Of a stretch of 64,000 bases of DNA, positions 45,256 through 46,502 are shown piece after piece. This stretch comes from Candidatus Omnitrophota bacterium (GTDB lineage Bacteria > Omnitrophota > Gorgyraeia > Zapsychrales > Fredricksoniimonadaceae), in contig CAIUQE010000020.1 in assembly GCA_903901225.1 (NCBI GenBank), forward strand, positions 5,092 through 69,091, in the 5' to 3' direction. The notes under the pieces were generated by a model, which saw nothing but the letters and a program-made list of their open reading frames with translations, was not told where the DNA came from and did not search any database. Both the position numbers and the translations under genes were made by a program. The first letter of the stretch is position 1. Each line of letters begins with the position of its first letter.

Positions 45256-46230
45256 TCAGGTCCCGATATTGGCGAGGAGTTCTTTATTGGTGGAAAATTT
45301 GGCGAGGCGCCCGACGAGGTCCTGGGCCGCTTCAACGGCGCCGAGATCGGCGAGCGAACGGCGGATCATCTGGATCTTCTTGTGTTCATCAGCCCCCAAG
45401 AGGAGCTCTTCCTTGCGCGTGCCGCTCTTGGCAATATCAATGGCGGGGAAAATGCGGCGCTGGGAAATGTCGCGGGAAAGGAATATTTCCATGTTGCCGG
45501 TGCCCTTGAATTCCTCAAAGATCACCTCATCCATGCGGCTGCCGGTCTCGACAAGGATGGTGGCCAGGATCGTGAGCGACCCCCCGTTCTCGATCTTGCG
45601 CGCCGCGCCAAAGATGCGCCGCGGCACTTCAAGGGCGCGCGCGTCGACACCGCCCGAAAGCGTCCGGCCGCTGGTGCGGCACTCGGCGTTATGCACGCGT
45701 GAAAGGCGCGTCAGCGAATCAATGAGGACAACCACGTCCTCACCCGACCCGGCCTCGGCTATCGCCTGGCGCATCAGCTCATCCGCGACCACCACATGGT
45801 GCTCGTAATCCTGGTCGGAGGACGAAGACCGGACCTCGGCCGTGACATTGCGCTTGAAGTCCGTCACTTCCTCAGGCCTTTCATCCACCAAAAGGCAGTA
45901 CAATTTGACCTTGGGACAGGCTTTCGCGATCGCCTGGCAAAGATGCTTGAGGAAAGTCGTTTTCCCGGAACCGGGAGGCGCCACGATGAGCCCGCGCTGG
46001 CCCATGCCAATGGGACAGATAAGGTCCATGGCGCGCATCGTCAGCTCTGAGGACCCGTCCTCCAGGCGCATGCGCGGCGAAGGGTCAACGGGCGTACCCG
46101 CGAAAAATTTGGCCTCGGCCTCACTCTGGGGGCGACGGGCCTGTTCCGGACGGCGGTCAGACCCCTGGCGATGGAAAGACCCCTGCGGCCTACCGGGTTT
46201 ATGCTGAAATTTTTTGTTTTGGAAATGCAT
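45256..46230 (-). CDS. rho: transcription termination factor Rho homolog lacking the canonical N-terminal OB-fold RNA-binding domain
   Basis: GQRGLIVAPPGSGKT Walker A, LLVDERPEEVT, GGVDARAL, and a GTRKEEL-type R-loop match the Rho ATPase core (E. coli ~129-419). Only ~41 aa precede this, and they are Arg/Gln-rich rather than OB-fold-like. Confidence 0.8.
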   Translation of the reverse strand: MHFQNKKFQHKPGRPQGSFHRQGSDRRPEQARRPQSEAEAKFFAGTPVDPSPRMRLEDGSSELTMRAMDLICPIGMGQRGLIVAPPGSGKTTFLKHLCQAIAKACPKVKLYCLLVDERPEEVTDFKRNVTAEVRSSSSDQDYEHHVVVADELMRQAIAEAGSGEDVVVLIDSLTRLSRVHNAECRTSGRTLSGGVDARALEVPRRIFGAARKIENGGSLTILATILVETGSRMDEVIFEEFKGTGNMEIFLSRDISQRRIFPAIDIAKSGTRKEELLLGADEHKKIQMIRRSLADLGAVEAAQDLVGRLAKFSTNKELLANIGT

Positions 46231-46241
46231 TATGGGATTGA

Positions 46242-46278
46242 TGATAAATAGGCCCTCCAGCCTTGCGGCTGGAGGGCT
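46242..46278 (-). terminator. rho-independent terminator of the csp gene (GCCCTCCAGCC-GCAA-GGCTGGAGGGC + T-rich tail)
   Basis: 11-bp GC-rich stem followed on the minus strand by TATTTATCAT; sits ~25 nt downstream of the csp stop and ~15 nt upstream of the rho start. Confidence 0.65.
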
Positions 46279-46301
46279 TATTTACAGAACCGAAAAAGCT
46301 A

Positions 46302-46502
46302 TTACAGCTTCACGACGTTCTTGGCCTGCTCGCCCTTGGGACCCTGAGCGATCTCAAACTCGACAGCCTGGCCGTCGCTGAGCGTTCTGTGGCCTTCGCC
46401 CTGGATCTCGCTGTGATGCACGAAGACATCTTTGCCGGACTCAGGTGTGATAAAACCAAAACCTTTTTTGTCGTCGAACCACTTCACTTTACCTTTAACC
46501 AT
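46302..46502 (-). CDS. cspA: cold-shock protein (CspA family, single cold-shock domain)
   Basis: [16 protein letters not shown] (RNP1) and DVFVHH (RNP2); 66 aa. Confidence 0.9.

Follow-up and report, generated by a model that had tools for sequence, protein, structure and literature searches.

By the usual account, Rho depends on an N-terminal primary site both for finding RNA and for loading onto it, and published surveys define a 'functional Rho' by the presence of an RNA-binding domain. The window examined here, that is, the whole 64-kb stretch of an Omnitrophota contig, encodes a Rho-like protein in which this part of the molecule is missing, and the gene directly upstream encodes a cold-shock protein; the OB fold of Rho is itself structurally CspA-like. 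A sequence-only reading of this DNA had offered two interpretations, namely, a split Rho, in which the adjacent cold-shock protein would supply the primary RNA-binding site, or an unusual truncated Rho. The locus thus raises the question of whether the short gene is real, whether its neighbour is the missing half of the protein and, if not, how a Rho-type motor of this form could capture RNA.

A Rho motor domain without the N-terminal domains

The features of the locus, all on the minus strand, are as follows.

44310..45254, minus strand: gene for an RlmI/RlmK-like 23S rRNA SAM-methyltransferase, its ATG 1 nt after the rho stop (PF10672 at 1.9e-34)
45256..46230, minus strand: short rho, 324 amino acids, comprising the linker helix and the RecA-type ATPase/translocase domain, without the helix bundle or the OB fold
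46123..46230, minus strand: segment of short rho encoding the basic, disordered N-terminal tail (amino acids 1-36, net charge +7; AlphaFold2 pLDDT 52-62 over residues 1-30)
46252..46277, minus strand: intrinsic-terminator hairpin of csp, an 11-bp stem with 9 GC pairs and a GCAA loop, followed by the imperfect U-tract CUAUUUAU
46302..46502, minus strand: csp, complete, CspA/CspE-type, 66 amino acids (PF00313 at 9e-29, residues 3-65)
46503..46622, minus strand: long 5' leader of csp, with a strong Shine-Dalgarno sequence, AAGGAG, and a small hairpin with a T-run at 46572-46559
46623..46651, minus strand: putative sigma-70-like promoter of csp, TTGACA, 17-nt spacer and CATACT, 10 of 12 consensus positions, a consensus match only

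The Rho-like reading frame lies exactly where the sequence-only reading had placed it. When its translation was searched against Pfam, PF00006 was the sole significant domain (3e-19); there was no match to PF07498 (Rho_N) at E <= 0.01, and PF07497 (Rho_RNA_bind) was absent as well. Residues 36-321 of the short Rho correspond to positions 127-412 of the 413 positions of the NCBIfam model PRK09376, with a score of 388.1 bits that exceeds the cut-off of 315; the score with TIGR00767, 372.9 bits, falls below the cut-off of 509.45. By BLASTP, residues 27-319 align with residues 123-413 of E. coli Rho at 49% identity, and the best match in the PDB is the T. thermophilus Rho (8hsj, residues 141-425). 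The earlier description of this protein as the C-terminal ATPase domain of Rho only is borne out by the extent of these alignments and by the lack of PF07497 and PF07498. The N-terminal segment is indeed short and devoid of an OB fold, but its length had been put at about 41 residues, whereas the unstructured tail comprises about 36. An AlphaFold2 model of the monomer has a mean pLDDT of 90.7, with values above 90 in the core. No other rho gene was detected in the window in a tblastn search with E. coli Rho, the short gene being the sole match.

Could the missing domain have been lost to an error in the sequence? An in-frame stop is located 17 codons 5' of the ATG, and csp is read in a different frame; an N-terminal domain could therefore not be regained by any frameshift. 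In assemblies made independently of one another and taken from ENA, Logan and NCBI, at least 17 contigs encode a protein identical to the short Rho, with csp and rho in the same order. The check for a frameshift or sequencing error at the csp-rho junction accordingly came out negative, given the upstream stop, the complete csp gene and these identical contigs, and the comparison with relatives showed that the loss is family-wide: at 85 family loci, the sequence up to 5 kb from short rho contains neither a Rho N-terminal domain nor anything resembling one. Only one observation would fit a frameshift, a misassembly or a rho in decay after the loss of its 5' end, namely, that no obvious Shine-Dalgarno sequence precedes the ATG of short rho. 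Against such an origin stand, apart from the independently assembled contigs and the upstream stops, hundreds of equally long, intact homologues, the invariance of the functional residues (see below) and the confident structural model. Taken together, these observations refute such an explanation and leave it virtually no room. The short rho is an intact, conserved gene, and the truncation is genuine.

The short-Rho family and the known forms of Rho

Judging by sequence comparison, the short Rho is a member of a large family of Rho-type motors that are found mainly in Omnitrophota. The 120 closest protein clusters listed are all 260-358 amino acids long, contain PF00006 only and have no Rho N-terminal domains; among those clusters that carry a source name, most are labelled Omnitrophica or Omnitrophota. 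A family-specific 36-aa segment is encoded at no fewer than 517 metagenome loci. A literature search found no papers linking Omnitrophota or Omnitrophica with Rho, and the family, large as it is in these uncultured bacteria, is undescribed. Among the MAGs with a short rho are GCA_015232235.1, GCA_015233145.1, GCA_015233675.1 and GCA_015233705.1, and the population to which the present locus belongs occurs in samples from stratified lakes.

The residues on which the motor depends are strikingly constant. Across 121 members, K184, T185, E211, R212, D265, S266, R269, R299, T323, G337, R353 and R366 (here and below, E. coli numbering) are unchanged, so that the Walker A motif (GKT), the Walker B aspartate (D265), the catalytic glutamate (E211), the arginine valve (R212) and the arginine finger (R366) are all present. 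The secondary RNA-binding site, formed by the Q-loop (K283, T286) and the R-loop (K326), is kept with the conservative, fixed substitutions K283R, T286S and K326R, each seen in all or all but one of the 121 members; T286S and K326R occur in the full-length Omnitrophota Rho as well. The mean identity in the ATPase domain is 78%, and the family is under strong purifying selection.

In place of the missing domains, the family members carry tails with a median length of 31 amino acids, which contain 18% R and 14% P and have a median net charge of about +6. Almost no tail is present in 15 of the 119 annotated members, which may reflect miscalled start codons. More distant lineages (P0256, P0259, P0260, P0380 and P0401) also lack the N-terminal domain and have basic tails, and a related short form is encoded in a MAG labelled Sericytochromatia, within the Cyanobacteriota.

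Compared with the canonical Rho (E. coli P0AG30, the NCBIfam models PRK09376 and TIGR00767, and the structures 1pv4 and 8hsj), the C-terminal RecA-type domain of the short Rho aligns end to end, with the same Walker A and B motifs, E211, R212 and R366, but the helix bundle and the OB fold are replaced by the basic disordered tail of about 36 residues. In addition, the canonical STFDEP motif reads SSSDQD in the short Rho, and the position of K181 is occupied by glycine, as it is in all 121 members. The short gene also lies outside the coaE-rho-rpmE-prfA locus that is typical of canonical rho.

The Omnitrophota belong to the PVC group of bacteria. Second copies of rho without the N-terminal domain have been reported in this group, in which a genome with two rho genes is a frequent case (PMC11347177). 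The short Rho resembles the 'Group B' or Type 4 second Rho (D'Heygere 2013, as cited in PMC11347177) in that both are shorter and divergent, have lost N-terminal sequence and keep the catalytic residues; as far as they are described there, however, the Type 4 proteins retain the RNA-binding (OB) domain, which the short Rho does not, so it would not be a Type 4 Rho. Under the definitions of the same study, it qualifies as 'Rho-like' only, that is, as a protein with a single Rho domain, a class that the main text of that study does not analyse; its data set includes no Omnitrophota (PMC11347177). The last 290 or so positions (71-360) of the 360-aa NCBIfam model NF041509, 'paralog_Rho2, transcription termination factor Rho, short form', align with the short Rho, but the score of 331.7 bits is far from the cut-off of 628, and the five distant lineages named above likewise score below it; none of these proteins is a member of that family. 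Finally, an Arg-rich, low-complexity disordered segment precedes the motor also in the atypical Rho proteins of M. tuberculosis, B. fragilis and B. thetaiotaomicron. In those proteins, the disordered region is added to a retained OB domain, whereas in the short Rho the tail is the sole element N-terminal to the linker. Basic disordered insertions raise the affinity for RNA in other Rho proteins (PMC11347177).

A canonical full-length Rho, abundant and highly conserved, is present in Omnitrophota. At the full-length loci L011, L023, L029, L071 and L089, its gene is found in the order GT-coaE-rho-rpmE-prfA, which recurs at L171 and L173; neither the window nor any of the 85 short-rho loci has this arrangement. 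The ATPase domain of the short Rho is about 52% identical to that of any full-length Rho, whereas full-length proteins from different phyla are about 67-70% identical to one another, and in a neighbour-joining distance tree, which is open to long-branch effects, the short forms comprise a monophyletic clade on a long stem. Together, these sequence relationships indicate that the short Rho is probably a divergent paralogue of the canonical protein. Among the best 120 clusters of each form, compared by accession and by ENA/JGI sample identifiers, no genome or contig with both genes was found; the nearest pair of accessions, MBF0485382 and MBF0489667, comes from different MAGs (JADFYI and JADFYF). 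A scan of GTDB genomes with the whole protein, in which the generic motif MDEVIFEE dominated the matches, returned, among the matches listed, mostly full-length Rho of other phyla and one short locus, L001; it provided the control set and the full-length Omnitrophota Rho.

The annotation 'transcription termination factor Rho' overstates what is known of the short proteins, and the label can mislead surveys of the lineages that have Rho-dependent termination, relatives of Cyanobacteria included.

The cold-shock gene and the split-Rho question

The claim that a complete CspA-type gene lies directly upstream of rho on the same strand, closed by a terminator hairpin of its own, proved correct. The hairpin has a predicted dG of -35 kcal/mol (z = -5.95) and is conserved, with compensatory changes in the stem, in the loci L108, L129 and L168. 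The distance between the csp stop and the short rho start had been underestimated at about 48 nt; it is 71 nt (46231-46301), and 21 nt of this stretch lie between the hairpin and the ATG. The promoter of csp is the only promoter-like site within 45000-46800. In the leader, the terminator-like hairpin at 46572-46559 reads ACCACCCCTGTGGT and then CTTTTTGTTT, and no Rfam family was matched there at the gathering score.

The protein itself is ordinary. It is a full member of the CspA/CspE family by Pfam, the RNP1 (KGFGFI) and RNP2 (VFVHH) motifs are readily visible in the translation, and the Csp models rank first among NCBIfam matches, CspE being the best with 101.9 bits, below the 120-bit cut-off, and CspC and CspD also among the best. 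An identical Csp is common to several species-level lineages. What stands out is its position beside the short rho in this sub-lineage, and by its sequence and signals csp would seem to be an ordinary, independently expressed cold-shock gene.

Might this protein nevertheless bind the short Rho hexamer, or act on the same RNA, and so provide the primary RNA-binding function in trans? Several observations are in keeping with such a partnership. Besides the structural likeness of the Rho OB fold to CspA, csp directly precedes short rho at the present locus as well as at L108, L129 and L168, the csp-rho-methyltransferase block persists in this sub-lineage although the genes further upstream differ, and at least five different arrangements of csp around short rho were seen. 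Moreover, csp occurs within 3 kb in 8 of the 36 short-rho loci with full flanks and in none of the 53 full-length rho loci (Fisher p = 4e-4, uncorrected for relatedness). According to a review, E. coli Rho co-purifies with CspC, CspD and CspE, among other proteins, and Rho termination is modulated by CspA (PMC12360218).

The weight of the evidence, however, is on the other side. The three loci named above are the only ones among 76 other family loci in which csp is immediately upstream, so that 96% lack it there, and about 78% of the full-flank loci have no csp within 3 kb. The csp gene is served by a promoter of its own, ends in a conserved terminator and is not translationally coupled to rho. 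Its product is an unmodified protein of the housekeeping type, 95-100% identical across lineages in which rho is 77-81% identical, and shows no profile similarity to the N-terminal domain of Rho (as a detached Rho OB domain it is rejected by hhalign against full-length Rho, with a probability of 0.9%). In addition, the basic tail is common to distant lineages of short Rho, which suggests that a substitute for the missing domain is built into the protein. The split Rho envisaged by the sequence-only reading is therefore very unlikely, given the rarity of the adjacency, the autonomy of csp and the lack of profile similarity. A more elaborate version, a modular system of two pieces in which free Csp marks or unfolds RNA and passes it to the N-terminal-less Rho ring, with Csp-dependent read-through of the csp terminator setting the level of the ring, strikes us as equally hard to credit; if true, it would place the primary-site function in trans and tune it by temperature or stress. 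A looser functional or regulatory link between csp and short rho is possible, because the csp-rho-methyltransferase block is stable and csp is enriched in the vicinity.

Operon context and possible functions

The tightest operon partner of the short rho in the window is not csp but, probably, the methyltransferase gene that follows it. NCBIfam models of rRNA m5C methyltransferases match the product of this gene, below their cut-offs; it is directly 3' of short rho in 15 of the 85 loci and 3' of rho in every context in which the identical csp was found. In this sub-lineage, the pair would probably be transcribed by read-through of a leaky csp terminator, because the 21 nt between the hairpin and the ATG leave no room for a promoter, and its level would thus be tied to the transcription of csp. 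The usual neighbours of short rho are the genes for an ABC-F protein, a secreted 336-aa protein, KdpD/response regulator and the RlmI-like methyltransferase; across short-rho loci, an ABC-F translation ATPase recurs in 21 and csp in 13. No match in Pfam or NCBIfam was obtained for the secreted 336-aa protein or for the 110-aa gene that directly precedes short rho in other lineages; neither is present in the window.

The interpretation towards which we lean, with a confidence only a little beyond even, is that the short Rho is a conserved Rho-type motor that serves as a specialised second Rho and captures RNA through its tail or an adaptor. It would assemble a Rho-like hexameric ring, thread RNA through the central channel and translocate 5' to 3' with ATP. 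Capture would be unspecific for sequence, because the pyrimidine-specific primary site is absent, and the face that normally bears the N-terminal crown would instead carry six projecting basic tails; that the tail binds RNA is suggested by its composition. Adaptors that act on the C-terminal domain, such as NusG, may help: the NusG KOW domain binds the C-terminal domain of Rho and closes the E. coli ring on C-less RNA (PMC7819879). Most probably, the protein would terminate transcription, remove R-loops or clear RNA, with a relaxed specificity for RNA, beside the canonical full-length Rho known from the coaE-rho-rpmE-prfA locus of other Omnitrophota. A family that lacks the RNA-binding domain yet keeps the motor and channel residues is a natural experiment on the loading of the Rho ring, for which the basic tail, NusG or another adaptor are the candidate routes when there is no primary site, and it bears on the role of a second, specialised Rho.

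A less probable alternative, which nonetheless deserves serious consideration, is that this organism and its clade have no Rho-type factor besides the short form, which would have replaced the full-length protein, so that all factor-dependent termination would proceed without a primary site. The strong conservation of the family, with its fixed functional residues, is as expected of an important gene; moreover, there is no full-length rho in the window, nor within 5 kb at the 85 short-rho loci, and the full-length Rho proteins listed share no contig with short rho, an argument that is weak in so far as the co-occurrence search covered only the best 120 clusters and 10-kb flanks. The related short form in Sericytochromatia points the same way, Cyanobacteriota having been reported to lack a functional Rho (PMC11347177). 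Conversely, the short gene lies outside the canonical rho locus, its product is far more divergent than orthologous full-length Rho proteins are, Omnitrophota have an abundant and highly conserved full-length Rho, and PVC genomes often have two rho genes (PMC11347177).

It is also conceivable, if improbable, that the short Rho is not a terminator but has been re-purposed as a remodeller of RNA or RNPs in ribosome biogenesis or cold adaptation, together with the co-transcribed rRNA methyltransferase. Within the pre-termination complexes of E. coli, RNAP and NusA are further contacts of the Rho N-terminal domain; a motor that has lost this domain could thus be uncoupled from RNAP, and the strong divergence of the ATPase domain would be compatible with a changed role. 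Retention of the Q-loop, R-loop and ATPase-site residues as in a translocating Rho speaks against this, and a 5'-to-3' RNA translocase acting on nascent RNA could, in principle, dislodge RNAP; furthermore, no neighbouring gene is universal. The neighbourhood itself is in keeping with remodelling: the methyltransferase gene with its 1-nt gap and recurrent adjacency, the repeated ABC-F and csp genes and, in one locus (L090), genes for an RRM protein and an S4/pseudouridine synthase near short rho. These neighbours, the rRNA methyltransferase, ABC-F, Csp, RRM protein and pseudouridine synthase, fit the remodelling of RNA or ribosomes and termination equally well, which counts against the interpretation preferred here.

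Architecture and locus of the short Rho

The 324-aa Rho-like protein encoded in the window is the C-terminal domain of Rho only. Pfam finds PF00006 in it and neither Rho_N nor Rho_RNA_bind, and among the NCBIfam models, PRK09376 matches residues 36-321 with positions 127-412 of its 413 (388 bits, cut-off 315), the score for TIGR00767 (373 bits) being below the cut-off of 509. The protein shows 49% identity to E. coli Rho across E. coli residues 123-413 (BLASTP), and in the PDB it best matches T. thermophilus Rho (8hsj, residues 141-425). The AlphaFold2 model obtained with a 60-sequence family alignment (mean pLDDT 90.7) shows disorder over residues 1-36, a short helix at residues 37-44 and, beyond it, a confidently predicted RecA-type core. 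The OB-fold N-terminal domain is thus missing, as the sequence-only reading had stated. The family core begins (DEAE..F.AGT.VDPSPR) at the equivalent of about E. coli residue 128.

A frameshift or sequencing error hiding an OB fold, which had also been contemplated, is contradicted by an in-frame stop 17 codons 5' of the rho ATG, and by the DNA further upstream, which encodes a complete Csp in a different frame. Moreover, the identical protein, with the same csp-rho-methyltransferase order, is found on at least 17 contigs from independent ENA, Logan and NCBI assemblies. This recurrence and the family-wide short architecture rule out an artefact, the probability of which we consider negligible. 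The locus is organized as follows:

46651-46623, minus strand: sigma-70-like promoter (consensus match)
Between promoter and csp, minus strand: csp leader, ~120 nt, with a strong Shine-Dalgarno sequence
46502-46302, minus strand: csp, 66-aa cold-shock gene (PF00313 at 9e-29; best NCBIfam matches CspE/CspC/CspD)
46277-46252, minus strand: hairpin with an 11-bp stem, then an imperfect U-tract (dG -35 kcal/mol, z = -5.95)
46230-45256, minus strand: short rho, 324-aa ORF (ATG 21 nt past the csp hairpin; stop TGA)
45254-44310, minus strand: RlmI/RlmK-like rRNA methyltransferase, 314 aa (ATG 1 nt past the short rho TGA)

The complete CspA-type gene upstream on the same strand, with its own terminator hairpin, is as previously described, except that the gap between the csp stop and the rho start measures 71 nt rather than ~48 nt. 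Because the csp hairpin and the rho ATG are just 21 nt apart and the promoter search gave no hit in this interval, expression of rho and the methyltransferase most likely depends on read-through of a leaky csp terminator.

The csp leader contains a small hairpin followed by CTTTTTGTTT (46559-46572, minus strand), terminator-like in appearance and matching no Rfam family, which could be an attenuator or another regulatory element. The three-gene block is flanked by apparent polyamine/agmatine pathway genes (39756-41707 and 46679-49030, minus strand), namely, PAD_porph (agmatine deiminase-type) and CN_hydrolase genes on one side, and a weak arginase-family gene (PF00491, 6e-6) and a class-III aminotransferase on the other. 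An 840-aa ORF (41716-44238, minus strand), which matches no Pfam or NCBIfam family, has a hydrophobic N-terminus resembling a signal peptide; it is conserved beside the methyltransferase gene in related loci (L081 and L085, 836-840 aa).

Family extent and relation to full-length Rho

The "unusual truncated Rho" of the sequence-only reading is real and characteristic of its relatives. The best 120 protein clusters (68-96% identity), the named ones being mostly Omnitrophica or Omnitrophota Rho, are all 260-358 aa long and contain PF00006 only, and no Rho N-terminal-domain-like sequence was found within 5 kb of short rho in any of the 85 loci with flanks. When JGI metagenomes were scanned for a 36-aa segment specific to the family, RF.AGTPVDPSPRIRLEDGS.ELTMRAMDLICPIGM, at least 517 loci were confirmed. 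Across 121 members, K184, T185, E211, R212, D265, S266, R269, R299, T323, G337, R353 and R366 (E. coli numbering) are unchanged, and the replacements K283R, T286S and K326R each occur in 121 or 120 of the 121; this fixation of catalytic and RNA-site residues is the mark of a motor kept active by purifying selection.

Gly replaces E. coli K181, a P-loop and bicyclomycin-pocket residue, in all 121 short members (K181G), and Tyr stands there in 40 of the 40 full-length Omnitrophota Rho checked; the sensitivity of both forms to bicyclomycin may differ from that of the E. coli protein. On one GC-rich metagenome contig (L123:3987-5852), ~330 stop-free codons precede the short rho core, a stretch that is probably non-coding because its translation is Arg/Gly/Pro-rich and of low complexity, or else, possibly, an N-terminally extended variant.

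The full-length Rho of Omnitrophota (417-477 aa; PF07498, PF07497 and PF00006) match E. coli Rho at 61-64% identity as whole proteins, with 80-98% mutual identity of the ATPase domains, and at every locus examined are encoded in the order glycosyltransferase-coaE-rho-rpmE-prfA, in which short rho is found neither in the window nor in the 85 loci. The short Rho ATPase domain is ~52% identical to that of full-length Rho, whether from Omnitrophota or other phyla; among full-length forms of different phyla, the figure is ~67-70%. The short forms make up a monophyletic clade with a long stem in a distance tree, outside all full-length sequences. The different locus and the extreme divergence, along with the published finding that PVC genomes frequently have a second rho (PMC11347177), suggest that short Rho is a neofunctionalised paralogue of canonical Rho. 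Comparison of NCBI accession neighbourhoods, assembly ids and sample ids matched no genome shared by short-rho and full-length-rho records, and the scenario in which some Omnitrophota clades have the short form as their sole Rho is conceivable, if rather doubtful.

Short Rho is homologous to canonical Rho and, presumably, works alike, but lacks its defining N-terminal helix bundle and OB-fold primary site. It is distinct from Type 4/Group B Rho because those proteins retain the OB domain, and from Rho2 (NF041509), scoring below the model cut-off. A 2024 survey of 2,730 genomes, in which Omnitrophota were not included, defined functional Rho by the RNA-binding and ATPase domains and set ATPase-only sequences apart as "Rho-like" (PMC11347177); among searchable papers, none linking Omnitrophota with Rho was found. 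Short Rho proteins, already labelled "transcription termination factor Rho" in databases, are a real, large, uncharacterised Rho subfamily.

The cold-shock neighbour and proposed RNA capture

The csp gene is, by all indications, autonomous, its terminator hairpin being kept in four lineages with compensatory stem changes, and Csp itself is a standard CspA-type protein: lineages with 77-81% identity between their rho genes share 95-100% in Csp. A profile comparison showed no similarity of Csp to the Rho N-terminal domain. Of the 76 other loci, just 3 (L108, L129, L168) have a csp whose end lies no more than 400 nt 5' of rho; csp genes near short rho (13 loci) vary in position, with at least five arrangements, and the commonest neighbours among the 85 loci are others, namely, an ABC-F ATPase (21 loci), a secreted ~336-aa protein (21), KdpD with a response regulator (20) and a PF10672 methyltransferase (15). 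All this argues against the more striking interpretation, a split Rho in which the adjacent Csp supplies the primary RNA-binding site, which is not supported and in our view very improbable, even though the csp-rho-methyltransferase block stays joined in every distinct context found for the identical Csp, despite differing upstream genes, and csp is enriched within 3 kb (8 of the 36 short-rho loci that have full flanks, versus none of 53 for full-length rho; Fisher p = 4e-4, with loci treated as unrelated). The association would fit genes that are regulated together or have a loose functional tie. A review describes CspA as a modulator of E. coli Rho termination at cold-shock leaders and names CspC, CspD and CspE as co-purifying with Rho (PMC12360218).

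The tail ahead of the core (0-69 residues, median 31) is low in sequence conservation but has a uniform make-up (R 18%, P 14%, S 9%, H 8%, N 7%). It frequently starts with M[KR]NF, and its net charge lies between +2 and +10 (median +6; +7 in the window). An exhaustive search over 1.84 billion cluster representatives revealed distant lineages (47-61% identity; P0256, P0259, P0260, P0380, P0401) in which the motor directly follows a basic low-complexity tail; none reaches the NCBIfam "Rho2 short form" cut-off. The profile derived from them retrieved at least 120 further proteins; in all 120 listed, PF00006 is the sole Rho-related domain, and nearly all are of short-form length, one being labelled Sericytochromatia. 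The recurrence of this layout suggests that the tail, rather than a separate protein, stands in for the lost RNA-capture function.

Short Rho is probably a hexameric Rho-type RNA translocase, moving 5' to 3', in which the pyrimidine-specific primary site has been lost. RNA would be captured through its six basic tails, located on the N-terminal face, or with the help of factors that act on the C-terminal domain, or through both; in E. coli, NusG-KOW, which binds the Rho C-terminal domain, closes the ring even when the RNA contains no C (PMC7819879). Such an auxiliary Rho, with relaxed RNA specificity, would act in termination, R-loop removal or RNA clearance. We lean slightly toward this scheme as a whole; a remodeller of RNA or the ribosome, tied to the co-transcribed rRNA methyltransferase, appears unlikely.

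The distant Rho-like protein P0259 (301 aa), without the Rho N-terminal domain, comes from a MAG labelled "Candidatus Sericytochromatia", and Cyanobacteriota, the phylum containing this class, were reported to lack functional Rho (PMC11347177); a binning error is possible because its contig is only 4.2 kb. Directly 5' of short rho in six loci of other sub-lineages (L086:3653-3982, L087:3597-3929, L090:3598-3930, L097, L136, L168), there is a conserved ~110-aa protein (MTFEELLSE...), absent from the window and without a family match, that could be a lineage-specific partner. The ~336-aa protein (e.g. L088:3001-4011), also without a family match, has a hydrophobic N-terminus and lies directly 5' of short rho in 21 of the 85 loci, often overlapping its start. 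In L090 (5484-6280), csp and an RRM_1 RNA-binding protein follow short rho, and an S4/pseudouridine synthase gene and the PF10672 methyltransferase precede it, forming a dense RNA-metabolism gene cluster.
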